The notes under the pieces are model-generated. The model saw nothing but the letters and a program-made list of their open reading frames with translations. It searched no databases and was not told the origin of the DNA. This document shows, in pieces, positions 1-47,111 of a stretch of 64,000 nucleotides of DNA (positions are counted from its first letter, which is position 1; every line of letters starts with the position of its first letter). A program made the translations under genes and the position numbers. Source of the DNA: a virus (Duplodnaviria > Heunggongvirae > Uroviricota > Caudoviricetes); the IMG/VR virus record IMGVR_UViG_3300021387_000074. One strand, given 5' to 3'.

Positions 1-398
1 CACACTCTTATTTTTATTCTTTTATCTTTTGATATTTCTTCAAGAATATCAGAATAATTCTCTTTAAATTTTTCCAGTTCTACCGCGTTTAAAAACCCTG
101 GCTTTTCAACAACCTCGCCAGTTTCAGGATCTACTTCTGGCTCTGGTTCAGGATCGTCTGTACCGTCATACTCCGAGTCATCTTTTTCGGGTTCAGTAGT
201 TGGCTCTGGTTCTGGCTCTGGAGCTGGTTCTTCAACAATTCTATCTTCTGGAAGTTTGTCAAAGTCAAAATCATCAAACTCATAATAGCACTCATTTCCT
301 TCGTTGTCAATACAGCGAATTAGACCGTCATCTGTTTTAGACAACGGTGTCACTAGAGAACCATCTAATAAATCTGATAACTCATTATATTTAAACAT
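1..398 (-). CDS. Hypothetical acidic protein with Pro-Glu repeats (partial, runs off window start)
   Basis: Read by hand: ATG at 398 overlaps upstream TAA (TAATG); MFKYNELSDLLDGSLVTP...EPAPEPEPEPTTEPEK... open to base 1. Confidence 0.75.
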   Translation of the reverse strand, partial: MFKYNELSDLLDGSLVTPLSKTDDGLIRCIDNEGNECYYEFDDFDFDKLPEDRIVEEPAPEPEPEPTTEPEKDDSEYDGTDDPEPEPEVDPETGEVVEKPGFLNAVELEKFKENYSDILEEISKDKRIKIRV

Positions 399-1570
399 TA
401 TTTCTTTCTATAAATCCTTGCTAAAATTTGCATAGTGCGTGCCCATTCACCCTCTGTCATTATTTTTGGAATTTGATAAATTTTTCCACCAATATTCATA
501 TCAATAGGGCCATAGTTTTCGCCTTTATAACTAATCCAACCACTATTACTTCTTGATTTTCTTTCTTGTTCTCTTTCCCAGCCAGCTACATCTTTATAAC
601 CCTCTGGACAAGGTTGTTTTATATATGGTCTAATAAGGCCTTCAATATGAAGACCTCTAATAACAGCAATAGATCTTGTTTGTCCTGCTTTATCTTTAAA
701 GTTAGATTTAAAGTTTCCTGAAGTGTTTTTAACGTCAGTAATTTGGTGCAACTGTGTTCCTCCATTTCTTTCAACAGATTTGAAAGTAACAAAAGTCTTA
801 GCGCCGTTATCTGTCACAAACCAGAAATCGCTACTCTTTGAAAGTTCGTCAAGATTAAATCTTCTAGCATCTGAACGACTTACAATTTTGTTTGCTCCAT
901 CGCTAACTTCTTTATAAACATCTGGCATATTTTTTACTAAAATATTATAGTCTTTTGCAGAAACAGTTACGTAGTTTCCTTGAGCACCGTATGTGCTTCT
1001 TTCACCTGACATTTTTTCAGACTCTCTGTAACCAAGATTGTTAAAATATTCCTTTGTTCTTTTTTCAGTCATTCTTTCTTCTGTATTTTGCTGCCAAGGT
1101 TTAATAGCTAAAGACTTAATCATTATTCTCTTCCATCTTTCTGGAATTTTTGGTCCTTCGCCATTTATAGCTGCATGAAAGTTCTTTATATCAGCATTTG
1201 TAGCATTAAAATCTTTTGATATATTTTTATGCAAAAAGTTTTCAACGCTTTTTTTAAAATTTTCATCAGAGCTAGAAATTTTACTTATATTCTCACTTTC
1301 CAATTTTTTTCTTTCAGAACTTAATTCATCTTCCGTTTCTTGATGTATTAAATCCGTTTTTGTTTTATAGCGGTATAAATCTCTTTTTAAAGTTTTGGCT
1401 TTTTTTACATCTTCTTGACTTGCGTTTGCCTTTTCCCCTTTTTTAATAGCCTTTAAGTCTGCCGAATAAGCAGCTTGTCTTTCGGGATCTCTTTTAAGCA
1501 TTATTGATATGTTTGTTTTTTTAGAGTTATCTATTTCTAGTAATATTTCTTTTACTTCACCAAAGTCCAT
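398..1570 (-). CDS. Putative PD-(D/E)xK-type endonuclease next to a DNA methyltransferase
   Basis: KSSDF...VTFKSVERNGGTQLHQ resembles the D...K...GG.Q..Q core of restriction-like nucleases; adjacent MTase; own AAGTTAAT motif. Confidence 0.45.
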   Translation of the reverse strand: MDFGEVKEILLEIDNSKKTNISIMLKRDPERQAAYSADLKAIKKGEKANASQEDVKKAKTLKRDLYRYKTKTDLIHQETEDELSSERKKLESENISKISSSDENFKKSVENFLHKNISKDFNATNADIKNFHAAINGEGPKIPERWKRIMIKSLAIKPWQQNTEERMTEKRTKEYFNNLGYRESEKMSGERSTYGAQGNYVTVSAKDYNILVKNMPDVYKEVSDGANKIVSRSDARRFNLDELSKSSDFWFVTDNGAKTFVTFKSVERNGGTQLHQITDVKNTSGNFKSNFKDKAGQTRSIAVIRGLHIEGLIRPYIKQPCPEGYKDVAGWEREQERKSRSNSGWISYKGENYGPIDMNIGGKIYQIPKIMTEGEWARTMQILARIYRKK

Positions 1571-1579
1571 GAAATTAAC

Positions 1580-2554
1580 TTATTGAATTTTCAATAACTC
1601 TGTGCATATTCTATAAACATCGTCTAAAGAAATTCTTTTTCTTCCATGATCTCTATAATTAGTGAAAATCAAATCTCCATAAAAGTATCTGTTTCCATCT
1701 ATAAAATCATTAAACTCATTTACTAATTTTATTTGTTGTTCTGGGGTTAAATCCTTTTCGCATTTTAAAGTAGCAAAAATTCTATCATTCTTTTGCCCCT
1801 TATAAACATATCCTGGTTTATATTCTAAACCAAAATGTTTAGTTCGAGTATCTAAACATCTAACGTAAATGTTAGTATTTGCTGGTTCGTCGCCAATTAC
1901 GCGCGAAAATATTGGCTTAGTTCTTTTAAAAAAATCAAAAATTTCTCCACCAATCCTATAGCCATATTCTCTATTTAAGTTGATTGGTGTTTTATTGCCA
2001 TTTTTTCCATTGTTGAAAATAACTATACTGTTATCACTCTGCTCACCCTTTTTAAAATGAAAAGAGCAAACATTATAAGTAGTATTTTTAAACACTTGAT
2101 ATGTGAAATAATTTACATAGTCTACATGATATTGAGAAAAGAATTTTTCCCTTACTTCTCTTGTTGCTTCGTCTGTAAAAAAATTAAGTGGGATAATTAA
2201 AATTCCTTCTTCACAACCCATTATACTTAATATAGAAGCTTTATACAAATCATCGGTTTGATACTTATCAAAAATTTCTTTAAACTGATCTGTTTTATTT
2301 CTTGCTAAATAAGGTGGATTTGTAATTACAACCTTACCCGTATAATCAATTGGGGTTAACAAACTATCTCTGTAATTTACTCTTGGGTCTTTTATATCTA
2401 TATCATAAAGTTCCCATTTTGTATTAGGAGAATATTTTGTTAAGTCACAAGCACCCGCAAAAGGATCCACTGCCTCTTGCGGGTAAAAATCTATTCCTTG
2501 TAAAATTTCTTTATAGTTTTCTGTAAAATGTTGCGTTTTTTTTAAATCACTCAT
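1580..2554 (-). CDS. N6-adenine DNA methyltransferase
   Basis: Motif I VDPFAGACDL followed by motif IV ITNPPY. Confidence 0.88.
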   Translation of the reverse strand: MSDLKKTQHFTENYKEILQGIDFYPQEAVDPFAGACDLTKYSPNTKWELYDIDIKDPRVNYRDSLLTPIDYTGKVVITNPPYLARNKTDQFKEIFDKYQTDDLYKASILSIMGCEEGILIIPLNFFTDEATREVREKFFSQYHVDYVNYFTYQVFKNTTYNVCSFHFKKGEQSDNSIVIFNNGKNGNKTPINLNREYGYRIGGEIFDFFKRTKPIFSRVIGDEPANTNIYVRCLDTRTKHFGLEYKPGYVYKGQKNDRIFATLKCEKDLTPEQQIKLVNEFNDFIDGNRYFYGDLIFTNYRDHGRKRISLDDVYRICTELLKIQ

Positions 2555-2879
2555 CTACTGTAACTTCTTTCTTTCCAAATTTTCTATTCAAAAATGCTTG
2601 AATTGCATTCCAAGAAACCTCTGCAGGAAAATGGATTACCCATCGTTCCTGGCAAGCTTCAGAATAAGACATAATAACCCCTTGTTTATTAGTGTCAAAA
2701 CCAAGAGCATCATATTCTGGAACAATTGTAAATTCAATCCAACAGTCTTCATTATTTTCACAAACATAAGAAACTGTTTCTGTTATATAGGCTATATTTT
2801 CATCAAGTTTATAACCTGGGATTTTAAATTGTGTTAAGTCAGCAAATTCAATTGTTTCAATATCTACATTTACCATCAC
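2547..2879 (-). CDS. Hypothetical protein
   Basis: 110-aa ORF overlapping both neighbours; GGAGG RBS upstream. Confidence 0.7.
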   Translation of the reverse strand: MMVNVDIETIEFADLTQFKIPGYKLDENIAYITETVSYVCENNEDCWIEFTIVPEYDALGFDTNKQGVIMSYSEACQERWVIHFPAEVSWNAIQAFLNRKFGKKEVTVDE

Positions 2880-3400
2880 ATTGCCTCCTTGAATGATGTT
2901 ACATATTTTCCTTTTGCTTCTTTTTCTTCAAGAGAAGATCCTGGTATCTCAAACTCAGTGCCTCCATAATTGTCATCGTCGTCCTCATCATCTAAGCGTG
3001 GAACTGTAATTGTCAAACTAGGATTCCAAGCTGGAATACCTACTGGTTGACTTTGGATTACGCCTGACAACACGCCATAGAATTGCTGACAAACAGCAGG
3101 ATCAAGAAATTTTATGCTTATTTCTACATCCGTTGCACCTAGTGGGTTATATGCATCTTGTTTTACATTAGCAGCATACAACATCCAAGCCCCTGGATTA
3201 TCCATTAAAACTTGCATTGCTGCTTGATTACCTTGAGCTATCGCTGCTTTTGTGTAAGTCATGTAAGGTTGCATTGCTTGTTGCATTGATTGCCGCCATT
3301 GACTATAACCATCGTCGCTTGATGTAAATTCTACTTCATTTTTGTTTACTACTTCATTTCTATTTTTTAAAACTTCTCTAATTTTTGATGAAATCGACAC
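2876..3400 (-). CDS. Hypothetical protein, weak tail-tube-like segment
   Basis: GTG start with AGGAG RBS; YNPLG...ISIKFLDPA echoes tube protein YNPLTG...AQFDPAG. Confidence 0.6.
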   Translation of the reverse strand: MSISSKIREVLKNRNEVVNKNEVEFTSSDDGYSQWRQSMQQAMQPYMTYTKAAIAQGNQAAMQVLMDNPGAWMLYAANVKQDAYNPLGATDVEISIKFLDPAVCQQFYGVLSGVIQSQPVGIPAWNPSLTITVPRLDDEDDDDNYGGTEFEIPGSSLEEKEAKGKYVTSFKEAM

Positions 3401-4920
3401 TAATTACTCCTTGGCTGATATCTAATCAGCATTGCTCTAATGGTGTCTGGATTTGTAACCCAGTTTCTACTACCAAATAGAATTCCACCATTATCGTCAG
3501 GATAAACTTTCATAAGATAGAAACCTGTCAAAAGTTTTTCCTTTATATGTTCATAATATGACGCAAAACAAGGAATTGTCAACTCTTCTCCATTGCAGTC
3601 TTCGGCAGTTATGAAGCACATCAGTTTTCCATTCTTCTGATTATGACATCTTAAATCCTTTACATGAACAAATACATAAGCAGATGATTTATCAGCTTCG
3701 CGAATTTCATTAAAATCTCTAAGACATTTATTCAAAGAAACAAGTTTTTCAATCTTTGAAACCATATCATCTGAGAACACTCCGTGGAAGAAGCTACCAC
3801 TAAGATAGTTCTTTTCCATTTCCATATACTCTTCTGGAGTTGTCTTAGAATCAAGCTCGTGATTTTCTACTGTTTCATTCCAAATCTTTATAAGTTTTTC
3901 GGGAGTCTTAGTTGTCTTTTTGTTAATGTAAAACTCTTCAGTGATTTTAAGATATTTTCTTCTTTCACCTTCAGGTATTAAATTATCAAAAGCACCACCA
4001 CCAATTAACGCGAGAGTAATTCTTTTATTAACCTTAGTTCCAAGAGTTTTAATTATAAAATCAATAATACTCTCATAACCTCTGTGCTCTATAATATTTA
4101 GTGCTGGCTCTTCACCTACACCCTTAATCTCATTCAAACCAAATCTTATTTCTTTTTCTGAAACTGGAGTAAAATGAATGTTAGAGCTGTTAACATCAGG
4201 TGGTAAAATTTTAAACCCGTTTTTTTGCGACTCTTTAATAGAATCTTTTAAAACATCTGTTTTTGTTGCATCATAAGTCAAAGACGCTGCCCAAAAGTAT
4301 GGTTTGAAATAACGAGACATATAGAGTGTCTCACACGCAACATAAGTATAAGCCGCCGCATGAGATTTATTAAAAGAATAAGCTGACAAAGTAATCAAAT
4401 CTGCAGTAAATTCATCGATCTCTGCAGAAGTTAGTTTACTCTTCGCTTCTTCTTTAATCGTACTAACCAACTTTTCCCAGGCATCCAAATCTTCTTGCTT
4501 TTTATTTGCTTTACCGAGTTTCTTTAAAAGACCACGAGCGTAATTACCCTTAATTTTTCCGTTTGAAAGATCTTCTACGAGTTTCATAATCTCCTCTTGG
4601 AAGAGAATACAACCGTGAGAATCTTTCAAAAATTTAGATATAGGCTCTGGATACTTTGATCCTTCTGTTCCGTTTGCTACGAAGTCATCAAACGAGAAAG
4701 AAGAACCTGGTCTCGACAAAGCATTCAAACAAGTAAGTTCGTCAAAGTTTTGAGGAATTGCTCTCTGAATCATACCAGATGCAGTATTACCTGAAAACTG
4801 AAATATATTCGCTTGACTCTCATTTACTTGTTGAAATAATTGTTTATCTTCATATGACATTCCGTAATACAAGAACTCTTTTAATTCTTGCTTACTGACA
4901 TTTTCTTGTAAAATTTTCAT
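3400..4920 (-). CDS. dnaE: DNA polymerase III alpha (DnaE), C-terminal part (fingers, HhH, OB fold)
   Basis: IFQF, LNALSRPG, ILFQEEIM, YSFNKSHAAAY, LPPDVNSS, IRFGLNEIKGVG; start moved to ATG 4920 behind AGGGG RBS. Confidence 0.92.
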   Translation of the reverse strand: MKILQENVSKQELKEFLYYGMSYEDKQLFQQVNESQANIFQFSGNTASGMIQRAIPQNFDELTCLNALSRPGSSFSFDDFVANGTEGSKYPEPISKFLKDSHGCILFQEEIMKLVEDLSNGKIKGNYARGLLKKLGKANKKQEDLDAWEKLVSTIKEEAKSKLTSAEIDEFTADLITLSAYSFNKSHAAAYTYVACETLYMSRYFKPYFWAASLTYDATKTDVLKDSIKESQKNGFKILPPDVNSSNIHFTPVSEKEIRFGLNEIKGVGEEPALNIIEHRGYESIIDFIIKTLGTKVNKRITLALIGGGAFDNLIPEGERRKYLKITEEFYINKKTTKTPEKLIKIWNETVENHELDSKTTPEEYMEMEKNYLSGSFFHGVFSDDMVSKIEKLVSLNKCLRDFNEIREADKSSAYVFVHVKDLRCHNQKNGKLMCFITAEDCNGEELTIPCFASYYEHIKEKLLTGFYLMKVYPDDNGGILFGSRNWVTNPDTIRAMLIRYQPRSN

Positions 4921-4927
4921 GATTAAA

Positions 4928-7057
4928 TTATACCCCTGAAGCTTTATTTTGTAAATATGATTTTGATACAATTTTTACAATCCCATCGTCGTCTTCAATC
5001 TTTACAAGCTCTTCATTTACAGATTCTACCGCATTTGAAATTACTTCCAAAACAGTAATAGCCAAAAAGTCATACTTGATTACACCAAGTTCATCCAACT
5101 CTGTGTTTCCACCATTTTCTACAAACGCAGATGCTACTCCATCCTTTGTATGAACAACTGGAATATATTCCCAAACTGGTTTATCCATAATAAGACAACC
5201 ACCAGCGTGTTGACCTACTTGACGCACCTGTCCTATAATCTTTGGAGTGAAATCCAAATATGCTTTATTTCTCTGATAAGTTTCATAAAGTGCTGGAAAC
5301 TGTTCTGCATACATCTTCATATTCTCTTCAAAACTTAATTCATCATTAAGTTCTTTACAGAACGCATTACTTTCACCAAATGGCACATCACACTTTCTGA
5401 GAATATCTTTAATTGCGGATGCCAAGCCTACTGTTCCATAAGCCGCTACACCCATTACTCTTTCTGGACCATACTTTTCAATAAGCATTTGCTTTGCTGC
5501 TTCTTTTGCTTTTGGCTCAAAGTCTGTATCAATATCCAAGCCACCAGAACCACCACGCTTAATCTGAACAATTTCAAGCGGCTTTGTTAAATCTACTTTA
5601 TCTGTTTTACCCAAGAAGAATGGAAGAACATATCTATCATCACATTCTACTTCCATAATTTCATCATAAATAGAAACTTCTTTATCGAGCCACTTTGCTC
5701 TTCTTAATTCTTTAAGGGCACGGTCTTTATATTCTGGATATTCCTTTATTTTCTGAGCTACAATTTTCTTCAAATCGTCAAAGTTATAATTACGGTTCTT
5801 TGTTATATACCAATCACCTTTATAATACTTATAAGTATTTGATACCAATCTGTCGTCAGAAACAAACCTCTCGAACAACAACCCAAGTTTAATTGGGTCA
5901 ATTGCCCAAGAAGTAATTCCAAGACAAGCACATACCAAACTTCCACCCGCAGAACCACGGCCACTTCCAAGCATATATCTCTGTTCTTTTGCCCAATTAA
6001 TTACAGAAGACAAATTCAACAAATAACGATATGCACCTTTTTTCAAAAGTGTTTCAAGTTCCAACTCAAGTCTGTCTTTATATTCTTGTGGACAATCTTC
6101 ATAATCACAATTAAAATGTTTTGACAATCCTTCCTTTGCTAGTCTTACGAAATCGTCTTCCTCATCAAACGAGAATCTTGGCAATTTCATACCTGTTCCC
6201 AAAGGAATAACAAAATTACACTTTTCAGCAATTTTGTCTGTGTTAGCACACCACTGCTCTATCTGTTCGTCTGTATAACCATAATTCCAACCCTTGTTGA
6301 ACTGTTTGAAATCATCTACACTCTGATAGAACAACGATTTGCACTTATATGTATCATCACCTTCTGAATCTTCATCTTTTCTAAGGTTAAAAATAAATCT
6401 CTGAGTTTGCGCACCTTCTCTTGTTGCGTAATGCACGTCGCCCGTAATTACAACTGGAACATTATACTTTGCTGCAGTTTTTATAATCCAATCATTATAT
6501 TTCTTTTGATCTTCTACAAGTTCGTTTAACTGAATTTCAGCATAAAAGTTTTCGCCAAACTCATCAACAAATCTTTTAAAATAAGCTTCTGCTTTTTCTT
6601 CATTACCAGCCAAAACACACTGAGAAAATACAGAGGCCAAACAAGCAGAGCCTACAATTATTCCTTCTTTATATTGAAACAATTCTTCAAATGTATTTCT
6701 TGGTTTATAATAGAAGTGATCTTCATCAATGTTTGAGATATAATTCAAATGGCAAAGATTTTTCCAACCAGTTTCATTAGAAGCCAAAAGAATAATATGA
6801 TTATAATGAGTTCTCTTTCTTTTCTTACCTTCCATTGTTACCAATTCTTCTACAAGATATCCTTCCATTCCGAGAATTGGTTTTACACCTTTTGAAATCG
6901 CATATTGTTGAAATTTAAAAAGTCCAGACATCATTCCATGGTCTGTTAAAGCAAGTGCTTTATGCCCATTATTTACTGCTTGATCTACTAATTCTGTTAC
7001 ATCTGAAACTCCGTCATAGAAACTTCCATTTTTACTATGAACATGTAAATGAACCAT
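4928..7057 (-). CDS. dnaE: DNA polymerase III alpha (DnaE), N-terminal part (PHP and palm) with ~100-aa insertion
   Basis: HLHVHS, ALTDHG, TGDVHY (PHP metal ligands), GRGSAGGSLV, LLFERF, DIDTDF, HAGG, KYDFL. Confidence 0.95.
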   Translation of the reverse strand: MVHLHVHSKNGSFYDGVSDVTELVDQAVNNGHKALALTDHGMMSGLFKFQQYAISKGVKPILGMEGYLVEELVTMEGKKRKRTHYNHIILLASNETGWKNLCHLNYISNIDEDHFYYKPRNTFEELFQYKEGIIVGSACLASVFSQCVLAGNEEKAEAYFKRFVDEFGENFYAEIQLNELVEDQKKYNDWIIKTAAKYNVPVVITGDVHYATREGAQTQRFIFNLRKDEDSEGDDTYKCKSLFYQSVDDFKQFNKGWNYGYTDEQIEQWCANTDKIAEKCNFVIPLGTGMKLPRFSFDEEDDFVRLAKEGLSKHFNCDYEDCPQEYKDRLELELETLLKKGAYRYLLNLSSVINWAKEQRYMLGSGRGSAGGSLVCACLGITSWAIDPIKLGLLFERFVSDDRLVSNTYKYYKGDWYITKNRNYNFDDLKKIVAQKIKEYPEYKDRALKELRRAKWLDKEVSIYDEIMEVECDDRYVLPFFLGKTDKVDLTKPLEIVQIKRGGSGGLDIDTDFEPKAKEAAKQMLIEKYGPERVMGVAAYGTVGLASAIKDILRKCDVPFGESNAFCKELNDELSFEENMKMYAEQFPALYETYQRNKAYLDFTPKIIGQVRQVGQHAGGCLIMDKPVWEYIPVVHTKDGVASAFVENGGNTELDELGVIKYDFLAITVLEVISNAVESVNEELVKIEDDDGIVKIVSKSYLQNKASGV

Positions 7058-7077
7058 CTTTTCACCTCTTTTTTTTA

Positions 7078-7106
7078 ATTATACCACAAATAAAAAAAGC
7101 AGTCAA
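7078..7106 (-). promoter_or_regulatory. Sigma-70-type early promoter for the dnaE operon
   Basis: TTGACT-N17-TATAAT with extended TG on the minus strand. Confidence 0.8.
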
Positions 7107-7121
7107 GACTGACTGCTTTTT
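7092..7121 (-). terminator. Intrinsic terminator overlapping the dnaE promoter -35
   Basis: AAAAGCAGTCA-agac-TGACTGCTTTT hairpin with A/T tracts on both sides. Confidence 0.75.
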
Positions 7122-7140
7122 GAGTTCTTATGTTACGGCG

Positions 7141-7551
7141 TTATTCGTCAAGGAACGGTTTTCGCCATTTTGCTGCTGGCTTTACAGTAAACCAAGTTGG
7201 CTTTACAATTTCTATTGTTGCCTCTTTAGTGCTACTAATATTTCCCGCCATAGCTGGGGATAAATAAAGATCTATTCCATTTTCTTTAAACTTTTTTAAA
7301 GCTTCAACAAAATCATCAAGAACAGTAACATCCGCATAAAGCGAATCGCCTTCAACATGGAAATTTGTAATTGTGCCAACCAAATGTTCAATATCGGCAT
7401 CATCTTTAAAACCATCATCTGGCACATTATCAACTAATGGAACAATATAATCTCTATGTTCTTTTTCAAACTCTTTTAAAGTTTTTAAAGAATAATAATA
7501 TCCATTTGCATTTACAATATCAGCTCTTAAAAATTCAACTGTCTTTTTCAT
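7141..7551 (-). CDS. Diverged, probably inactive prohead-protease (gp21-like) paralog
   Basis: ADIVNANGYYY / IEHLVGTITNF...LYADVTVL / GIDLYLSPAMAG / KPA track the protease motifs ADKINRNLRVY / LERIAVTF...LEGKA / GFKICFSTRCSG / SPS; the GELxH His is absent. Confidence 0.6.
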   Translation of the reverse strand: MKKTVEFLRADIVNANGYYYSLKTLKEFEKEHRDYIVPLVDNVPDDGFKDDADIEHLVGTITNFHVEGDSLYADVTVLDDFVEALKKFKENGIDLYLSPAMAGNISSTKEATIEIVKPTWFTVKPAAKWRKPFLDE

Positions 7552-7700
7552 TCTATTTCTCCTTTTTCTTTAAGTCTATCTATTTCTTTTTTAAAAGAAG
7601 GTGAGTTATTATAAAAAAAATCAAATACCTCATCTTCTGGTATAGCCTCTAATTGTTTTAAACAATCATCAAGAATTTGTAAACTTTCTTCTTTAGTCAT
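7548..7700 (-). CDS. Small hypothetical protein (50 aa; not in ORF track)
   Basis: MTKEESLQILDDCLKQLEAIPEDEVFDFFYNNSPSFKKEIDRLKEKGEIE; ATGA overlap with the next gene. Confidence 0.7.
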   Translation of the reverse strand: MTKEESLQILDDCLKQLEAIPEDEVFDFFYNNSPSFKKEIDRLKEKGEIE

Positions 7701-7704
7701 TTTA

Positions 7705-7971
7705 TTACCCCGCTCTTGTCCTAATTAAACCAGGCCACACGTCTGCTATACTGTCTGGACGCTGAGCTTCTAAAAAATCGTCTTGAATTGATCCATTCTT
7801 AACCATATAATTATAAGCATTTTCAAGAGCTTGTTGAGTATTAAGTCTTATTTCAGCATCGACAATATCTCCTACTAACCATTTCCATCTTTCCTCAAGA
7901 TCTTGCTCAGGTGTTTGATCTTCTTTTTCTGCTTCTTTAAAAGTTTCTGCCAAAAAAGTTTTTACATACAT
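7705..7971 (-). CDS. Stand-alone paralog of the major capsid protein N-terminal propeptide
   Basis: 24 of 47 residues identical, ungapped, to MCP residues ~13-59 (RWxW..DI.DAE..LNTQ..LEN.Y.YM...G.I). Confidence 0.85.
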   Translation of the reverse strand: MYVKTFLAETFKEAEKEDQTPEQDLEERWKWLVGDIVDAEIRLNTQQALENAYNYMVKNGSIQDDFLEAQRPDSIADVWPGLIRTRAG

Positions 7972-7974
7972 TTT

Positions 7975-8295
7975 TTAGTCCTTAAATTTTGCAATGTCTT
8001 CTTTTGTTACGCCCATATTTACAAGGAGTAAGTTAAGATATCCCATAACGTCAACAACATCGTTTACCCTTGGTTGCTTATCTGGGCAGTTCTTAATTCT
8101 TGAAAGTTTATCATCAAGTCGCTGATAAATTCCATTAAGTGCTACTGTATCTGGCCCCATAAATCTTGCAAATAAACCAAGTGGCTGAGAACCAATATTA
8201 CCATACTGAGTATTTTTGTAAATCTGCATATCAGCCATTGCGTCATAAATATCGCTAATTTTTCTATTAACTGTTTCTAAATTATTTTCGCTCAT
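7975..8295 (-). CDS. Nucleotide-modification-associated domain 1 (DUF1599-like) protein
   Basis: KNTQYG ... RLDDKLSRI ... DVVDVMGY motif pattern. Confidence 0.7.
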   Translation of the reverse strand: MSENNLETVNRKISDIYDAMADMQIYKNTQYGNIGSQPLGLFARFMGPDTVALNGIYQRLDDKLSRIKNCPDKQPRVNDVVDVMGYLNLLLVNMGVTKEDIAKFKD

Positions 8296-8653
8296 TCACA
8301 ACTCCTATCAATGGGTATGAAACATCGTCTGAGCAGTCGCATTCCCAGTCTATTAAATAAACTCTTTCAAATTTTTCATTAAGTTTTTCAAAGACTGTCT
8401 GAATATCTTTAAAATAATTAAGCCACTCTCCACTGCCATTCCTACCCATATGACACTCAATAACCCAATACTTATTCTGATACTCATTTGGTATTTCTTC
8501 ACCAAACTCGTTTGCTACTACTTCGGCAACTGTGTCAACCCAAAACCTGTCTTCTTTGTCTACTTCATTAAAGCAATCCTTAATCTTTTTGACAAAACCT
8601 TCATCTTCAACTTTTAACCAAGTTTCATTATATTTGTTTTCTATCTTTTTCAT
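8282..8653 (-). CDS. Hypothetical protein, probably leaderless
   Basis: ATG 8653 lies 6 nt below a perfect TATAAT and has no SD. Confidence 0.7.
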   Translation of the reverse strand: MKKIENKYNETWLKVEDEGFVKKIKDCFNEVDKEDRFWVDTVAEVVANEFGEEIPNEYQNKYWVIECHMGRNGSGEWLNYFKDIQTVFEKLNEKFERVYLIDWECDCSDDVSYPLIGVVNERK

Positions 8654-8659
8654 AAGCAA

Positions 8660-8688
8660 ATTATATACAAAACTATAAAATTTGTCAA
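8660..8688 (-). promoter_or_regulatory. Consensus sigma-70 early promoter driving the 8653-7141 operon
   Basis: TTGACA-N17-TATAAT on the minus strand. Confidence 0.85.
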
Positions 8689-8726
8689 GGACAAAAATCC
8701 TTAATTTAATTTTTTAACGAAGTATC

Positions 8727-8734
8727 AAGATAAT
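8727..8734 (+). promoter_or_regulatory. Late-promoter-like motif AAGATAAT upstream of scaffold (also 9551-9558 upstream of MCP)
   Basis: Variant of the recurrent AAGTTAAT motif preceding structural genes. Confidence 0.6.
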
Positions 8735-8759
8735 TTTATAAAACGGAGGTTCTAGTTTA

Positions 8760-9557
8760 ATGGATAAAAATCAGAAACTTTCGCTTCTTAACGAAGAGCT
8801 TGATGAAGAGTCAGCTAACTACATTACTGAAGCAATTCAGTCGTGGAAGGAAGAAGTTATGGCTCAGCTTCAGGAAGAAGTTGAAAGAGCAAAAGCAGAC
8901 AAATTAGAAGAACTGGAAGAGCTTAACCTTAGATACCGTGAAGAGTTGAAAGAAGAATATTCTGACAAGCTCACAACAGCTCTTGCAGAACTTAAAGAAA
9001 GTGTTAAAGCTGATGCTACTGCTAACGTTTTAAAGAACAATCCAGAATTAAAAATTCTTGAATCTATAAAAGAATTGGTTGCACCACTTCTTAACGAAGA
9101 TTTTAGAGAGAATACTTATTCTGACACAATTGCTCAATTAGCAGAAGAAAATGAAGCTTTAAGAAGAGAACAGGAAATCATGGAAGGCGCTCAAACTCTA
9201 TCAGAACTTTTGGCTCCTTACTCTGATAAGACACAAAAGTTGGTTCTTTCTTTGATTAAAGAAGGAAGCCCAGAAGAGGTAACAGAACAGTTCTACACAA
9301 TTATGGAATCATTGCAGGATGTTTTCGGCGAAGCTGAAGACAACAATGAAGACGATGACGACACAGATGATGAAGACAAAGGTTCTAAAAAATCTGGCGA
9401 CGACGATGATGGTGATGACGAAGACGACGATGACGAAGACGAAGACGACTTAGACGAAGACTTCATTAATGAAGGATTTGACGGAGACGACGACGAAGAC
9501 GACGGAGACGTTCTTGGTTCTGTAAAAAACATTATGAAACAATATTCAATAAGATAA
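8760..9557 (+). CDS. Prohead core scaffolding protein (gp22-like)
   Basis: Coiled-coil, acidic, many (L/I)xE sites, Asp/Glu tail, directly upstream of MCP. Confidence 0.85.
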   Translation: MDKNQKLSLLNEELDEESANYITEAIQSWKEEVMAQLQEEVERAKADKLEELEELNLRYREELKEEYSDKLTTALAELKESVKADATANVLKNNPELKILESIKELVAPLLNEDFRENTYSDTIAQLAEENEALRREQEIMEGAQTLSELLAPYSDKTQKLVLSLIKEGSPEEVTEQFYTIMESLQDVFGEAEDNNEDDDDTDDEDKGSKKSGDDDDGDDEDDDDEDEDDLDEDFINEGFDGDDDEDDGDVLGSVKNIMKQYSIR

Positions 9558-9574
9558 TTTAGGAGGATTTTTGA

Positions 9575-11089
9575 ATGTTAAATACTAACTTTATCGAAAA
9601 AAATCAGTATGAAGAACAGCTTAACAATAGATGGGATTGGATTACTGAAGACATCGACGATGCAGAAACAAAACTTAACACTCAGTTAGTTCTTGAAAAC
9701 TCGTATCGTTATATGATTACTGAGGGATTAATCCCTAGATCTTGGCTCGAGAACAACGTTCTTTCAGAAGACGTTCTCGAAGAAGCTCCACAGATGAGAG
9801 GCGCAGTTGGTGATTATGTTATCCCTAAGGTAATGTTCCCAATCATCAGACGTGTTATGCCAGAACTTATCGCTAACAAATTGATTTCAGTTCAGCCAAT
9901 TCAGCAGCCAACTGGTGTAATCTACTACATCAACTATGACTACTCTACAACAAAGGGCGAAATCAAAGCTGGCGACGAATTCTCTGCTAACCCACAGCAG
10001 ACAACACCTGCTTTCGCTACTTGGTATTCAAGTGAAAAAATCGGACCATTCGTTGCAACTGTTGACAGTGCTAACGTTGGTGCAGACGCAAACGTTAAAT
10101 TTGTTGGTGGAAAGGCTATTACAGACTTCCTCGGAACAGATGTAACAAAATATAAGATTAAACGTTTCGAAGTTTACAATACAACTACTGGTAAAGCTAT
10201 TGCTACTGTTTACGGTGCAGCAGCTGGTGCAGCAGCAAATGTAACTTACGACGGAGTAAAGGGTGAATTCACTGTTAAAGTTCCAGCTTCAGCTATGGCT
10301 AGCGGAAAAGACAATGCATTCAAGGCTTTCTTGGTTTATGATCAGGAAGGATCAAGCTTCATTCCAGAGATGGAATTCCACATCGACCACATGAACGTTG
10401 AGACAACTGAACGTAAATTGAAGGTTAGATGGACAAAAGAAGCTGAACAGGATATGATGGCTTACCACAAGATCGACGTAGAACAGGAACTTGTAAAAGT
10501 TGCAGCAGTTCAGACAAACTACGAAATCGACCGTGAAGTATTGAGATTCATCGATGACCACATCATCACTGAACTTTCTCAGAGCCACAACTGGACAGAC
10601 GACGCAGCAACAACTGGAAACAATACTCAGGGTAACTACCTTGATAGACATCGTTGCTTGGCACAGAAGCTTTACGCAGCTTCTACAAAGGTTGCAACAT
10701 TCAACCACCTTGGACCATGTGATTGGGCTGTTTCTTCTCCAAAGATTGCAGCAGTTCTTCAGATGCTCCCAGATTGGAAAGCAGGAGAAATTGCTAATGG
10801 TAAGACAACTTACTACAACGCAGGTTCTCTCGGAAACGGTTCTTTGGCTATCTATGTAGATCCAAACAGAACTGGTGGACAGGAAGACGAACTTACACTT
10901 GGTTACAAGTCTAAGGATTCAACATACGGAGCTGGTGTAGTTTACTCACCATATGCTAACTGGATGTCAGGAACAGTTGTTAATCCAGACAACTTCAACA
11001 ACATCCGTGGTTTCTTCAACAGATATGCTTTGAGCATGGCACCAAGAGGACAGTACAACTACGCTCGTGTAACAATCAACAACATCTAA
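9575..11089 (+). CDS. Major capsid protein (T4 gp23-like)
   Basis: LVLEN, PIIRRVMPELIANKLISVQP..QPTG, RKLKVRWT.EAEQD, EIDRE, GVVYSPY. Confidence 0.95.
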   Translation: MLNTNFIEKNQYEEQLNNRWDWITEDIDDAETKLNTQLVLENSYRYMITEGLIPRSWLENNVLSEDVLEEAPQMRGAVGDYVIPKVMFPIIRRVMPELIANKLISVQPIQQPTGVIYYINYDYSTTKGEIKAGDEFSANPQQTTPAFATWYSSEKIGPFVATVDSANVGADANVKFVGGKAITDFLGTDVTKYKIKRFEVYNTTTGKAIATVYGAAAGAAANVTYDGVKGEFTVKVPASAMASGKDNAFKAFLVYDQEGSSFIPEMEFHIDHMNVETTERKLKVRWTKEAEQDMMAYHKIDVEQELVKVAAVQTNYEIDREVLRFIDDHIITELSQSHNWTDDAATTGNNTQGNYLDRHRCLAQKLYAASTKVATFNHLGPCDWAVSSPKIAAVLQMLPDWKAGEIANGKTTYYNAGSLGNGSLAIYVDPNRTGGQEDELTLGYKSKDSTYGAGVVYSPYANWMSGTVVNPDNFNNIRGFFNRYALSMAPRGQYNYARVTINNI

Positions 11090-11110
11090 TTTTAGAAATT
11101 AGTTGATTTA

Positions 11111-11142
11111 AACCCCGTTCGAAAGAGCGGGGTTATTTTTTT
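11111..11142 (+). terminator. Intrinsic terminator after MCP
   Basis: AACCCCGTTC-GAAA-GAGCGGGGTT followed by a T-tract. Confidence 0.85.
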
Positions 11143-11150
11143 GACAAATA

Positions 11151-11180
11151 AAAAAGGCTACCAAATTTGGTAGCCTTTTT
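11151..11180 (-). terminator. Bidirectional-type terminator downstream of flagellin
   Basis: AAAAAGGCTACCAAA...TTTGGTAGCCTTTTT; the same stem recurs at 32665-32695. Confidence 0.8.
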
Positions 11181-11225
11181 ACTTTTCTCCTTTCTATGGC
11201 GAGAACCCCTCCGAAGTCGCCGTTT

Positions 11226-12074
11226 CTATTTTAACAACGCTAATACATTTTGTGATTGTGAGTTTGCTTGACTAAGCATAGCGACAGAAGCCTGAGAAAG
11301 AACCTGCTGCTTTGTATATTCTACCATTTCAGTAGCCATATCAGCATCACGAATTCTTGATTCTGCAGCTTGTGTGTTTTCAGCTGCTACATTAATTCCT
11401 TTCTGTGCCATCTCCATTCTGTTCTGATAAGCACCAAGATCTGCTCTCTGCTTATTAACATTTTTCAAAGCTTCATCAAGTGTGGCAATTGTTGTATTTG
11501 CCTCATCAGGTGATGAAATAGAAATCTGATTGTCTTCACCCTGGATACCTTTCAGCCCAAGAGCAGAAGCAGTCATTGTTCCTATATATGCTCTGATATT
11601 CTGATCTGCGTTTGCACCAACCTGGAATTGCATTACAGTATCAGAATCTTTTGAGAATCTTCCAGTTAATAAATTCATTCCGTTAAACTGTGCTGAAGAA
11701 GCAATTCTGTCAACTTCTGCTACAAGCTGAGAAACTTCTACCTGAATCTGCATTCTATCTTCATCTGAGTATACACCATTTGAAGCCTGAACTGCAAGTT
11801 CACGAATTCTCTGAAGAACATCAGTTGTTTCTGCTAGATAACCTTCTGCTACCTGAACAAAAGAAACAGCATCTCCAATGTTTCTTGAAGCCTGATTAAG
11901 ACCACGAATTTGAGATCTCATCTTTTCAGATACAGCCAAGCCAGATGCATCATCACCTGCTTTGTTAATTCTTTCACCACTTGAAAGCTTTGCCATTGAA
12001 TTCTGTAAGTTTGCCGCATTAATTCCTTCTTGGCGACTAGCAAACAAACTTGCCATATTGTGATTTATTACCAT
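11226..12074 (-). CDS. flaB: Flagellin, spirochete periplasmic filament core FlaB type
   Basis: MVINHNM...[66 protein letters not shown]; 282 aa without a D2/D3 insert. Confidence 0.97.
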
Positions 12075-12078
12075 ATAC

Positions 12079-12094
12079 TACCCCTCCTTGGGTA
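12079..12094 (-). promoter_or_regulatory. CsrA-type hairpin over the flagellin SD
   Basis: mRNA UACCC-AAGGAG-GGGUA places GGA in a hexaloop 4 nt before ATG. Confidence 0.55.
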
Positions 12095-12101
12095 TAAAAA
12101 A

Positions 12102-12129
12102 TTATCGGCAGATTTCTCTGCCGACTTTA
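12102..12129 (-). promoter_or_regulatory. Sigma-28 (FliA) promoter for flagellin, coincident with a terminator hairpin
   Basis: TAAA-N16-GCCGATAA; spacer forms TCGGCAGA-gaaa-TCTGCCGA followed by a T-tract. Confidence 0.75.
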
Positions 12130-12130
12130 A

Positions 12131-12520
12131 TTATTCGTCCCAATCAAAATCTTCTTTGGCTTCGGACGCTCTCGAAGCTGCAGTTGCAACTCCTTTTCTT
12201 GTGCTTTCTACTGGCCCAGCAATTTCACTTGCTTTTACAATTGCGTTTTTTTGGATTCTTCTCTTGTTAGTAACAGTGTCTTTTACTAGACCTGAATCAT
12301 ATATAAAATAACCGTTATCTAATTCGATGTAGTTTCCTTTCATTAAAACAACATAATCATCGTCTGATATTTCTTGCCCAGTAGTTATTGCACCTACTTG
12401 CCTAACCTTTGCTAATCCTTTATTTCCGTTTGCGCCTTTTATGGCTTTTACAGTATAAGAATCAGCAAAAAGAAGACTTGTGAATAATGCTAAAAAAGCA
12501 ATCACAAAAAGTTTTTTCAT
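12131..12520 (-). CDS. Exported protein with Sec signal peptide
   Basis: MKK + hydrophobic core + LFA|D cleavage site; AAGTTAAT motif at 12541-12548 and GAGGAG RBS. Confidence 0.75.
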   Translation of the reverse strand: MKKLFVIAFLALFTSLLFADSYTVKAIKGANGNKGLAKVRQVGAITTGQEISDDDYVVLMKGNYIELDNGYFIYDSGLVKDTVTNKRRIQKNAIVKASEIAGPVESTRKGVATAASRASEAKEDFDWDE

Positions 12521-12550
12521 TTCGAATCTCCTCTTGTGTAATTAACTTTT

Positions 12551-13087
12551 TTAAATCAAATCCTCTCTTCCAATAAATGTCAAAGCCTTTGCACGATTTT
12601 TGTGAATTATATCATAGTTAGGATATGACAACTTGCTTGTTCCGCGGGTATGAGAATAAATCTCTGGGAAGAAATAGCATCTTGATCTAATATAGAAGAA
12701 ATTCCACAAATCTAAATCCTTGTTTTTTATGGCTCTTCCATCCTTTCCTTCTTTTCTTGCGATTGCATCCTTCAATGCCTCTGCAATACCAACGATTGGA
12801 ATATCGTCATCCTTATTTGATTTATAAACAGAACCGATGAAAACTTCTCCATTTTCACCTTTAATTGCCACCAATGTTCCGCGTGGCTTCGTTCTTTCAA
12901 GCTGAAGTCTTCCGTTTCCAACTTCCTTTCCAATGAACCCGTCGCGAATTCTCAAAGAAATGAAACCGTTGTTTCCATGTTCCTTTCTAAATTCATCAAC
13001 GAACTTCTGTGCTTCATCTCGTGCTTTATTACGAGCTTCTCTTTTCTCTGCTGCTCTCTTCTTAGCAGCTTCTTCAAATTTATTCAT
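12551..13087 (-). CDS. Hypothetical phage protein
   Basis: 178-aa ORF with AAAGGAGA RBS. Confidence 0.75.
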   Translation of the reverse strand: MNKFEEAAKKRAAEKREARNKARDEAQKFVDEFRKEHGNNGFISLRIRDGFIGKEVGNGRLQLERTKPRGTLVAIKGENGEVFIGSVYKSNKDDDIPIVGIAEALKDAIARKEGKDGRAIKNKDLDLWNFFYIRSRCYFFPEIYSHTRGTSKLSYPNYDIIHKNRAKALTFIGREDLI

Positions 13088-13100
13088 CTTTTTCTCCTTT

Positions 13101-13475
13101 CTATTTTAATGTTAAATGATTAGTCCATTCGTAAGTGCAATATACTTGTTTGGCCCACTCATACTTCTTTTCTTCTGCCATATTTTCGGGGCAGTAATGC
13201 ATTGACGTAACTTCCATAGCGGATTCAAGAGCTTTTCTTCTTACTAAAACATTATTAATATGTTTACTTTCAAAGAACTTATCAATCTTTAATGAAGTGT
13301 TTAAGGTTCTTTTACCAAGTCCATCCATATGTAAGATTGCCGAAGCAAAACTCGGATCATTATTTAGTTCTTCAACCGCAGAAATAGCATCTTTTAAAAG
13401 ACTTAAGTTATCAGCGTCCGTATAAACAATTCCGAGCCTTTTCATTTTTTCTTCAAGTTCTTTAATCTCACTCAT
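13101..13475 (-). CDS. Hypothetical protein, weak tail-sheath-C-terminal-like segment
   Basis: GKRTL...VRR...LESAMEVTSMHYCPEN. Confidence 0.6.
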   Translation of the reverse strand: MSEIKELEEKMKRLGIVYTDADNLSLLKDAISAVEELNNDPSFASAILHMDGLGKRTLNTSLKIDKFFESKHINNVLVRRKALESAMEVTSMHYCPENMAEEKKYEWAKQVYCTYEWTNHLTLK

Positions 13476-13476
13476 A

Positions 13477-14796
13477 CTAAAAATTATAAACCATTACTGC
13501 ATTTTTGTCAACACTTCCAACAGTTGATTGAAATCCTTCTTCGAATTTTTCCTCAGCATAAGATTTTCCAGATACACATGGTCTTGGCGCCCATTTAGAC
13601 TCACATCTCTTTCCTTGCCTGAAATGGTCAAATTGTTCAACCCCAAGATTTTCTGATTGACAAAGATTTTGCAGCATCAAGACTTCTCCAACTGGAGGAT
13701 TTTCGCCCCCACAGAGTTCTTCGTAGAATTTTAAAGTTTCTCTAGCTGCATCCCAAAAATTCCACTTTCTATGTTGATGGATTAATGGGTGCCTATCAAA
13801 ATCTTGAAATTCTTCGTAAAATAGCATATCAGGGCCAATCATTGAATATGCGGCTTTATCACCATTCTTATATGTTCCCATACCAAATGTTGAATAGCCT
13901 TGTTCATGTTCCCAGGCCATATCTGACAATGAATTAATATAAACATTAAAATCATCAATAATTGGTGATTTTGGCTTATAAAGCCTTGTAGCGGCAACAT
14001 TAAAATTGCCATTCAAAGTTCCTTCTGGGTTTATATAACCTGGAATATAAGTTCTTACCGCTCTGCTTATTCTTCTATAAACGTCTGCAGCATTAAAATT
14101 ATCCAAGTTGTATTTATTTTGATATAATACAGAGATAGTTATTTCATCTGGAAAGAAGCAATACTTATTTGTAAGTTTAAAAAGATCTTCCGTTAAAACA
14201 TCATCCCAACCTTGTTTAGTTGTCCAATATGTTATAAGATCTATAGCGATATTCATATCTAAATCTCTAGCGTATTGCATACACTGAAAAGCGTTTTGGT
14301 AATCGGGGATTAATCTGCCTTGTTCTATTAGAATATCATTATCAAAAGTCTGAAAACAAAATATCAATGTAGTAAAATTATGACTTTTTAATACGTTGAT
14401 AAACTCCTTAGTTATTAAAGCAGGATGAAGCTCTATTATTTTTCTAGGAGCTTTTTCTAAATATTCAGGCATAGATTTTAGGTATTTATCAAAGTCTTCT
14501 GGCGACAAATAATTAGGGGTTCCGCCGCCAAAATTAACCATTTCTATTGCCTGATTTTTTAGAATACTGTCATACTCTTTGAAGAGATGTGGCATATAGT
14601 CAAAATAGAATTTTTGAACTTCTTCTTCTGTATGATTGCTTTTTGGACAACCTTTATGCATACAGTAGCCACAATTGGCTTGTGTTTTACAGAATGGATT
14701 ATGTAGATATACGACCGTTGGTCTAACGTTTTTTTCCCACATTTTTCTATAACTAACGATGTCTACTACATTTCCACTAAATTCTAACATTGCCAC
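13477..14796 (-). CDS. HemN-like radical SAM protein with atypical CX5CX2C motif (start may be ATG 14790)
   Basis: VYLHNPFCKTQANCGYC, FGGGTPNYL, IELHP, QTFD. Confidence 0.85.
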   Translation of the reverse strand: MAMLEFSGNVVDIVSYRKMWEKNVRPTVVYLHNPFCKTQANCGYCMHKGCPKSNHTEEEVQKFYFDYMPHLFKEYDSILKNQAIEMVNFGGGTPNYLSPEDFDKYLKSMPEYLEKAPRKIIELHPALITKEFINVLKSHNFTTLIFCFQTFDNDILIEQGRLIPDYQNAFQCMQYARDLDMNIAIDLITYWTTKQGWDDVLTEDLFKLTNKYCFFPDEITISVLYQNKYNLDNFNAADVYRRISRAVRTYIPGYINPEGTLNGNFNVAATRLYKPKSPIIDDFNVYINSLSDMAWEHEQGYSTFGMGTYKNGDKAAYSMIGPDMLFYEEFQDFDRHPLIHQHRKWNFWDAARETLKFYEELCGGENPPVGEVLMLQNLCQSENLGVEQFDHFRQGKRCESKWAPRPCVSGKSYAEEKFEEGFQSTVGSVDKNAVMVYNF

Positions 14797-14996
14797 AACC
14801 CTGGTGGATTTTCCACCTCATAATCATCAATTTCGTGTTTTCTCTTTGTTTTGATATTGATAAAGTTATTTGGCAATAGCTCAACTTTGTCTATCACCAA
14901 ATCTCCATCAATTTCTACATAACTTTGTGCTTTGCCTTGATGAGCCCAATCTTGTAAAATATTACATAACTGGGCTACTGTCATATACTCACCCAT
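14784..14996 (-). CDS. Hypothetical protein
   Basis: 70-aa ORF overlapping both neighbours. Confidence 0.6.
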   Translation of the reverse strand: MGEYMTVAQLCNILQDWAHQGKAQSYVEIDGDLVIDKVELLPNNFINIKTKRKHEIDDYEVENPPGLWQC

Positions 14997-15486
14997 TAGC
15001 TGTTCCTGTGGAGGCCCCGTAGCCTTTATTACCGCGCTCTGTTTCTCTATCTTCCCAATTTGCTTCTTCGGTAAATGGAATAAGAGTAGGAATTAACTGA
15101 GCAATTTTGGAACCTTTTTTAATAACAATTTTCTTAAACATATTGTTATTTCTAATTACAACTCCAACATTTCCAGTATATTCGATATCTACAACGCCTG
15201 CTTTTGTTGAAAGCTTGAGCTTGTAAGCGTTTCCACTTGTGTCTTTTATAAGAGCATAAGCGTTCCAACCTGCTGGTGGTGTCATCTGAATAGCCAAGCC
15301 AGTCTTAATAAGCACTGTCTGATGCGCTCTAATTACCAAATCTTCATCAGAAAACAAATCAAAGCCTGCATCTGTTTCATGTGCTTTTTTTGGTATAATA
15401 GCGGTTGGTGAAAGCTTCTTCCATGCTACTTTTACTACTGTCTTTTTAGGTGTTTTTGGTTTTTTTTGATTACTTGTTTCTGCCAT
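14989..15486 (-). CDS. dut: Trimeric dUTPase
   Basis: DAGFDL, GVVDIEYTG, KIAQLI, RGNKGYGAST motifs. Confidence 0.92.
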   Translation of the reverse strand: MAETSNQKKPKTPKKTVVKVAWKKLSPTAIIPKKAHETDAGFDLFSDEDLVIRAHQTVLIKTGLAIQMTPPAGWNAYALIKDTSGNAYKLKLSTKAGVVDIEYTGNVGVVIRNNNMFKKIVIKKGSKIAQLIPTLIPFTEEANWEDRETERGNKGYGASTGTANG

Positions 15487-15677
15487 TACTCTGATGCCTC
15501 TTTAATACCTTTTTCGTTAAAAATCTTTCTAAGAGAGTCGATTGCTTCTCCCATCATTTTAGAAGCCTCGTCTACTGTTGGTGCTTCTGTTGTAACATCC
15601 ATCTGGCCAGCACCTTTTGAGGTCTGTTTAAAATTAAGTCTGGCTCTTGTATTAGGAATATTTGCTGTATCTTCCAT
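15486..15677 (-). CDS. Small hypothetical protein
   Basis: AAAGGAGA RBS; first gene after an early promoter. Confidence 0.7.
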   Translation of the reverse strand: MEDTANIPNTRARLNFKQTSKGAGQMDVTTEAPTVDEASKMMGEAIDSLRKIFNEKGIKEASE

Positions 15678-15699
15678 ACTTTTCTCCTTTCTTGACTAA

Positions 15700-15728
15700 A
15701 TTATACTAGAGCCAATAATTTATGTCAA
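15700..15728 (-). promoter_or_regulatory. Consensus sigma-70 early promoter, back-to-back with late motif AAGTTAAT (15727-15734, +)
   Basis: TTGACA-N17-TATAAT on the minus strand. Confidence 0.85.
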
Positions 15729-15750
15729 GTTAATTATATTGGAGACTTAA

Positions 15751-46998: not shown

Positions 46999-47111
46999 TT
47001 TATACCTCTTTAATTAACTTAGTGCACAACTTCCAAAAATTGACTATGTTTTTTAAAAGGACCTTCTTCGATTAAAAAGTCATAAGTTAATATGTAAATG
47101 GAGAATATATA

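Follow-up and report, generated by a model that had tools for sequence, protein, structure and literature searches.

Positions 7,141 to 8,688 of a 64,000-nucleotide (nt) stretch of phage DNA (IMG/VR record IMGVR_UViG_3300021387_000074, Caudoviricetes; the whole stretch is referred to as the window) carry an operon that encodes small relatives of two phage head proteins. ORF136, an open reading frame (ORF) named, like the others, for its length in amino acids (aa), has a prohead-protease fold in a predicted structure, lacks catalytic residues and is under purifying selection. ORF88 matches the major capsid protein (MCP, gp23) propeptide and behaves as a swappable cassette. Both genes lie behind a host-type sigma-70 promoter. 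One possible explanation, which we hold tentatively, is that their products act as decoys for host defences. The features of the operon are listed below; omega is the ratio of non-synonymous to synonymous substitution rates.

8688-8660, minus strand: sigma-70 promoter TTGACA-N17-TATAAT, 12/12 positions matched, one of three perfect sites within 1-16000.
8282-8653, minus strand: ORF123, the first operon gene, without a family match; replaced or missing in relatives L002 and L003.
7975-8295, minus strand: ORF106, matching phrog_1485 (function unknown; E 1.4e-9), strongly conserved (omega 0.03-0.26).
7705-7971, minus strand: ORF88, stand-alone MCP propeptide copy (type I mini-capsid), a swappable cassette.
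7548-7700, minus strand: ORF50, a small acidic ORF without a family match (omega 0.08 against L002).
7141-7551, minus strand: ORF136, predicted from fold and profile evidence to be a minimal pseudo-protease of gp21/S77 fold.
7121-7094, minus strand: terminator (hairpin-T) at the operon end, overlapping the 11/12 promoter of the DNA polymerase gene (7106-7078).

A preliminary description of this region had reported a perfect promoter, an 88-aa copy of the MCP propeptide, a 136-aa protease-like protein lacking the catalytic His, and the true MCP and protease elsewhere behind a late motif. All four statements were borne out. The five ORFs that follow the promoter (123, 106, 88, 50 and 136 aa) are tightly packed, with gaps of -13, 3, 4 and -3 nt, and end at the terminator.

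The relationship of ORF136 to prohead proteases is visible in profiles and in structure. BLASTP of ORF136 against the window's own protease was not significant (E 0.11). Comparison of a 37-row ORF136 alignment with 12 true proteases gave 95.9% in hhalign (E 5e-9), and a deeper, 16-row alignment with six distant relatives and a 143-aa paralogue gave 98.8% (E 7e-17 over 130 columns). For the distant relatives, 6 of 14 representative matches were used; one close relative, five partial matches and two long proteins were left out. When the protease profile was run over 2763 ORFs from 638 kb of related DNA (E < 0.01), it recovered, besides the true proteases, only ORF136 orthologues and the 143-aa ORF. 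None of 400 shuffled sequences came near the ORF136 profile score. In searches of Pfam, PHROGs and NCBIfam no significant family was found for ORF136 or ORF88. Likewise, a PDB sequence search with the 37-row alignment returned only noise, and tblastn of ORF136 against 50,697 GenBank phages gave no match at E 1.

A first structure model of ORF136, made from 37 near-identical rows, had a predicted local distance difference test score (pLDDT) of 41. The model used here reached a pLDDT of 91 and a predicted template modelling (TM) score of 0.84. Its input alignment held no His-bearing protease, but one row (P0154) is nearer to the true proteases, so the model is not wholly independent of them. The top three PDB rows were T4 gp21 (5JBL; E 3e-4, TM 0.61), followed by herpesvirus assemblins, and 166 viral models matched at E <= 0.001. 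Among Atlas matches, S77, S80, YonD_N and DUF2213 clusters appeared at 0.93-0.94, and 21 of 30 matches were unnamed clusters, the best three of 128-137 aa. The predicted structure shows an assemblin-like fold of the T4 gp21 prohead-protease type for ORF136.

The catalytic-loop His (T4 H85) is found in 0/120 close relatives of ORF136, where the column holds F/L or V depending on the alignment. At the catalytic Ser position (T4 S140) there is Ser in 114, Cys in five and Thr in one of these 120 sequences. The third-triad Asp is present in 12/12 proteases and unmatched in 37/37 ORF136 rows, and only 3/120 relatives have an Asp anywhere in the last-strand segment. The residue in question is Asp 168 of T4 gp21, which we take to be the third member of the triad. 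The Arg that is invariant after the Ser in proteases is Ala or Ser in 37/37 ORF136 rows, and ORF136 has neither the N-terminal leader nor the C-terminal tail found in the true protease. Judged by these residues, ORF136 is catalytically dead. ORF136 resembles T4 gp21 (PF03420 Peptidase_S77; PDB 5JBL) in its predicted fold and in an N-terminal D-x-x-N-x-N-x-x-x-Y-type motif, and differs from it in the loss of His, Asp and the conserved Arg, in the missing leader and tail, in its location outside the head module and in the lack of a late motif.

Despite these losses the gene is maintained. ORF136 is represented by 133 clusters, with 71-99% identity among the 120 listed. Omega was 0.12-0.48 in 6/6 pairs, and departed from neutrality in two of three pairs tested (p 2e-5 and 3e-7), showing that ORF136 is under purifying selection. 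A C-terminal motif, KWRKxFLDE, is kept in 114/120 relatives and missing from true proteases. The preliminary description considered both small proteins to be paralogs of the phage's own virion proteins. This holds for ORF88. For ORF136, a tree, albeit with long branches, rejects placement of the family beside the protease of this phage (p of the approximately unbiased test, p-AU, 0.008), and ORF136 is thus an old family rather than a recent copy of that protease. In one protein of 260 aa (P0144), an ORF136-type dead protease domain (residues 122-250) is fused to an unknown N-terminal domain.

ORF136 is not the only dead protease in this group of phages. The 143-aa protease-like ORF, also dead, lies between DnaB helicase and DNA ligase genes (L048 1474-1905; G006 ~24970-25400). 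In G006 it is found ~300 nt after a sigma-70 site, and it looks unrelated to ORF136. No dead protease was found in G001, G005, G007 or G008, where fragments cannot show absence. It should also be noted that, close to its catalytic His, the true protease of some more distant relatives is broken up, either by a large insert, possibly an intein, within a 551-aa ORF (L018 4386-6041) or by a split into two ORFs (L019 4715-6369).

A comparable protein has been described in phage SPN3US, whose gp117 is a 'cryptic' protease with counterparts of 136-145 aa in PhiPA3 (gp143) and 201phi2-1 (gp206), according to the available text of PMC5694885. As described there, gp117 is like ORF136 in being short, diverged and truncated, in occurring beside an intact protease gene, in its unaligned His, and in being presumed inactive, with function unknown. 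The two are likened by description. They differ in that ORF136 belongs to a T4-like (gp23) phage and gp117 to a phiKZ-like phage, and in that ORF136 has also lost the Asp whereas gp117 keeps Ser and Asp. Purifying selection and a sigma-70 promoter go beyond what the available description gives for gp117. The dead protease falls into a known, unexplained class, and its maintenance is shown here. In 2017, cryptic proteases were taken for probable remnants; the family described here is intact, dead, under purifying selection across >100 clusters and placed behind a host-type promoter.

ORF88 has a different history. It matches MCP residues 13-59 with 24/47 identities (51%; E 2e-13), and 0/400 shuffles reach its profile score, so that sequence comparison shows it to be a genuine copy of the capsid propeptide, which probably comprises MCP residues 1 to ~70. 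The match falls within the segment aligned with the T4 propeptide and stops before the region equivalent to Gol. In T4, according to the part of PMC9546572 available, the gp23 propeptide consists of 65 residues that are removed by gp21. ORF88 and the type II mini-capsids described below correspond to the equivalent segment of the clade MCP. Unlike the T4 propeptide, ORF88 is a separate small gene with a host-type promoter and acidic additions of its own, and type II mini-capsids also retain part of the mature N-arm next to the region equivalent to Gol.

All ten candidates for small homologues of ORF88 were retained (10/10). A second family (type II, 135-156 aa) is found at another locus, after the DNA polymerase genes (L001 9209-9679 and L029 3873-4280). 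Its members consist of the propeptide, a conserved acidic repeat in the middle and a piece of the mature N-arm; 11/24 candidates were kept, and the N-arm sequence IYY[IV]K is present in 10/11. Type II is mostly intact in the 11 homologues, which are 51-68% identical to the query except for the near-identical P0131. At these two loci, only type I is present in the window and only type II in L001. At 16 columns conserved in MCPs, the mini-capsids match at 85% and 81%, compared to 38% and 27% at 36 others, and seven propeptide residues are the same in 20/20 mini-capsids compared (W, W, I, T, E, Y, M). Gene conversion from the cognate MCP, suggested by shared variant sites, was considered and dropped, as the tree groups mini-capsids by type (52 columns, weak support). 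Matches in L028 and L030 were also dropped as chance matches to the strand opposite unrelated genes. The search for mini-capsids was negative in the more distant G001 (208 kb, 88% complete) and in G002-G005, G007, G009 and G010, which are fragments and cannot show absence, and an Atlas search with the 156-aa mini-capsid gave no usable match.

ORF88 is a swappable cassette. In a contig from run X7, 340 other bases replace exactly 7704-7971, from the start to the stop of ORF88. The same slot holds a 115-aa gene in L001, nothing in L003, and ORF88 in X4, X5, X9 and L002. ORF136 is present without ORF88 in L001, L003 and run X7. Since the two genes do not travel together, they do not form one system. 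The suggestion of a system of head-protein mimics therefore survives in part: two of the four proposed mimics are truly homologous to head proteins and lie behind a host-type promoter and away from the late motif, an arrangement consistent with either a decoy or an interferer, but a single system is unsupported. With their different ages, modes of selection and distributions, ORF136 and ORF88 are best regarded as two separate accessories.

The genes to which the operon is compared are located elsewhere in the window, as follows.

8760-9557, plus strand: scaffold (gp22-like; the name follows from position and composition), with a late motif at 8727-8734.
9575-11089, plus strand: MCP, gp23 (PF07068, E 2e-55; T4 gp23 alignment), with a late motif at 9551-9558.
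46360-46998, minus strand: true prohead protease, with His, Ser and Asp intact and a late motif at 47013-47020.
32078-32644: tail tube.

The scaffold, MCP, protease and tube genes have a candidate late motif in common, AAG[T/A]TAAT. Of its copies, 17/22 are no more than 50 nt upstream of an ORF start, compared to a background of 4%. The motif is enriched in position only, since the count itself is not over-represented (22 versus 17.1 +/- 4.4). One copy also precedes the anaerobic ribonucleotide reductase gene. There is no copy on the operon strand, and the operon promoter is kept in 3/3 relatives (L001, L002 and L003). Because the sigma-70 promoter is conserved and the late motif is absent, it is a reasonable inference from promoter sequence that ORF136 and ORF88 are expressed early, before the head genes. 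The first ATG of the operon (8653) is 7 nt past the -10 box, with the same spacing in the three relatives, suggesting that the message may be leaderless. Several perfect sigma-70 promoters, including the one at 13483-13475, are likewise followed by an ATG 7 nt past the -10 box without a ribosome-binding site, again suggesting leaderless messages. In RNA libraries, contigs spanned part of ORF136 in 3/4 runs, one of which may share the source of the window. ORF88 was not covered among the RNA-library pieces listed, and these contigs carry no information on level or timing.

The window belongs to a T4-like phage, as shown by its gp23 capsid, gp21-like protease and identified tube, and relatives of the region occur on contigs of up to 234 kb. 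Among the listed runs with the region, those that carry a label are gut metagenomes, including several of sheep or cattle. A full-length flagellin gene (11226-12074, minus strand) directly follows the MCP and is also present in relative L027. The best 80 of 627 genome matches to this flagellin are 72-77% identical and mostly labelled Treponema. Since the phage flagellin resembles those of gut Treponema, the host is probably a gut treponeme, and the window likely derives from a large gut phage infecting Treponema. Upstream of the flagellin, at 12104-12125, is a TAAA...GCCGATAA sequence that resembles a sigma-28 promoter and overlaps a hairpin.

Our tentative explanation for these observations is that ORF136 and ORF88 act separately as non-activating decoys for host defences that sense head assembly, the protease-sensing form of the cyclic oligonucleotide-based antiphage signalling system (CBASS) being the clearest candidate. 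Of the two genes, ORF136 makes the stronger case. According to the available text of a preprint (bioRxiv 10.64898/2026.03.04.709575), prohead protease activates CBASS by cutting a loop of the CD-NTase, and gp21 inactivated by H85A/S140A does not activate it. Capsids and proteases trigger other defence systems too, as far as the accessible portions of PMC13728456 and PMC12409349 go. ORF136 would keep its peptide-binding groove and would bind the protease-sensitive loop of a sensor, for example the CBASS CD-NTase, without cutting it. The bound ORF136 would then shield the sensor from the real protease later on. ORF88 would instead occupy a sensor of the capsid N-terminus, and its gain and loss might follow the appearance and disappearance of hosts bearing that sensor. 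Because it lacks the leader and tail of the true protease, ORF136 is probably excluded from the virion. A shield for such a tripwire would be expected to look like this, a protease fold that is dead, untargeted, early and kept by purifying selection. Host conflict also fits the way in which dead proteases and capsid leaders have repeatedly been drawn into variable operons with host-type promoters. SMODS nucleotidyltransferases were found in 5/151 sampled genomes of Treponema, the likely host genus.

Several observations weigh against decoys. The preprint, in the text available, shows dead gp21 failing to activate CBASS, not inhibiting it. Among the sampled hosts, CD-NTase-type genes are uncommon (3%), while ORF136 looks near-core in the clade, which was itself ascertained by the search with ORF136. 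Lit, according to the available text of PMC3014915, senses the Gol region of the capsid protein, and ORF88 ends before the equivalent stretch; no Lit family match was found in the 151 Treponema genomes, although the control gave no signal either. The N-terminus of gp23 is believed to be turned towards the core of the scaffold (PMC9546572, in the part available), pointing to assembly partners. In the one pair that could be tested, ORF88 had an omega of 0.66 over its whole length (p 0.14) and of 0.91 within the core (p 0.60), values that cannot be told from neutrality, compared to 0.16 for the propeptide of the MCP itself. Furthermore, 2/10 ORF88 homologues stop at 57-60 aa, one contig of run X9 has a one-base insertion near the ORF88 start, and two type II homologues have lost most of the propeptide while keeping the acidic part. 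Finally, descent by itself is expected to produce part of the agreement that the mini-capsids show at columns conserved in MCPs.

Two alternatives are nearly as likely as decoys. It is possible, if somewhat doubtful, that the two genes are independent leftovers: ORF136 may be an old fold reused as a peptide- or nucleic-acid-binding accessory unlinked to heads or immunity, and ORF88 a weakly selected, perhaps decaying, partial duplication. The failure of the genes to co-occur and their different ages are consistent with this, as are the near-neutral omega and broken alleles of ORF88. ORF136 has its own C-terminal motif, KWRKxFLDE, which true proteases lack, and short proteins with a protease fold (114-144 aa) occur commonly in phages that are unrelated. 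Paralogues and remnants are also abundant in giant phages (PMC5694885, in the text available). Against this, the same seven residues are kept by mini-capsids of two separate families, most of the 11 type II homologues are intact, and one genome (G006) has two dead proteases.

A little more doubtful is interference with head assembly, in which ORF88 would titrate scaffold or protease through the propeptide surface and ORF136 would trap substrates or join protease oligomers, so that the phage's own head assembly is delayed or the heads of co-infecting relatives are spoiled. Contact with the scaffold core and an influence on capsid geometry are probable for the N-terminal region of gp23 (PMC9546572, in the part available), and the residues kept in mini-capsids are those conserved in MCP propeptides. 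A cleavage site like that of gp21, [F/W]-L-E-[A/T], is kept in 8/10 type I homologues. ORF88 is 50-52% identical to other clade MCPs and thus as near to them as to its own, and T4 carries an annotated protease inhibitor, Inh. Against this, ORF136 does not group with the clade's own protease in the tree described above and lacks the terminal extensions; the C-terminus of the SPN3US protease was inferred to target the prohead, according to the available text of PMC5694885. In addition, an early inhibitor of the phage's own head would be costly, and ORF88 is dispensable in close relatives.

It is improbable, and less likely than the preceding explanations, that the two are ordinary minor internal head proteins, packaged in the prohead core and processed or ejected like those of T4: some T4 internal proteins are made early, and within its first 16 residues ORF88 carries two [ILF]xE motifs, as seen in 7/9 late-motif genes versus 2/9 other sigma-70 genes checked, but such motifs are short and common in acidic proteins, ORF136 has none and no such leader, the operon strand has no late motif and ORF88 is dispensable.

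Decoys of this kind would have precedents in their logic. DSAD1 competes with the tail tube on DSR2. Neither DSAD1 nor Ocr is known to be a copy of a phage's own head genes; their activity is proven, whereas that of ORF136 and ORF88 is proposed. The logic proposed for ORF136 and ORF88 is like that of Ocr, a non-activating look-alike that occupies a sensor (PMC12409349, in the text available). In a literature search without most subscription journals and supplements, no paper on stand-alone gp23-propeptide genes or structural-gene decoys was found. A broader version of this proposal is unlikely in our estimate, namely that large phages repeatedly make immune decoys from head genes, with the widespread cryptic proteases of 115-145 aa forming a general anti-defence class that binds the protease tripwire in sensors of the CBASS type and keeps it shielded, and with free propeptide genes neutralising an undescribed sensor of the conserved gp23 leader. 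Together with the 2026 report of protease activity as a CBASS trigger, ORF136 offers a direct and cheap test of what would be a new mode of anti-defence, the blocking of a sensor by a dead copy of its trigger. The free propeptide genes are a natural reagent for an old question, that of the binding partner of the cleaved gp23 leader.

The preliminary description also proposed a tube-like fragment at 2876-3400 and a sheath-like fragment at 13101-13475, both on the minus strand. Neither has sequence or profile similarity to its proposed counterpart. ORF174 (2876-3400) matched the tube with a BLASTP E of 0.37 and 0.06% in hhalign, and 189/400 shuffles scored as high. ORF124 (13101-13475) gave E 0.18 against T4 gp18 and E 1.6 against the G001 sheath, and 33/400 shuffles scored as high. 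These comparisons were made by sequence and with shallow profiles (2-3 rows), and the phage's own sheath gene lies outside the window. A very remote kinship of ORF174 with the tube or of ORF124 with the sheath is conceivable, but the claim is without support. ORF124 is a sporadic gene, with no relative among the 2763 ORFs, and is missing from its slot in L027.

Relatives of ORF174 are present in L001 and L029. ORF174 has a match to PF10963, a tail-assembly-chaperone family, below the cut-off (E 5e-4; 20.5 bits versus 25.7), and also to phrog_1214. In L001, where the loci concerned are 8782-9222 and 9676-9852, an ORF of 56-58 aa follows the type II mini-capsid and has a short motif that is similar by eye to that of ORF174. 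DNA polymerase III alpha is encoded by two ORFs in the window (3400-7057, minus strand), and in L001 and L029 its pieces are interrupted or flanked by genes resembling those of homing endonucleases.

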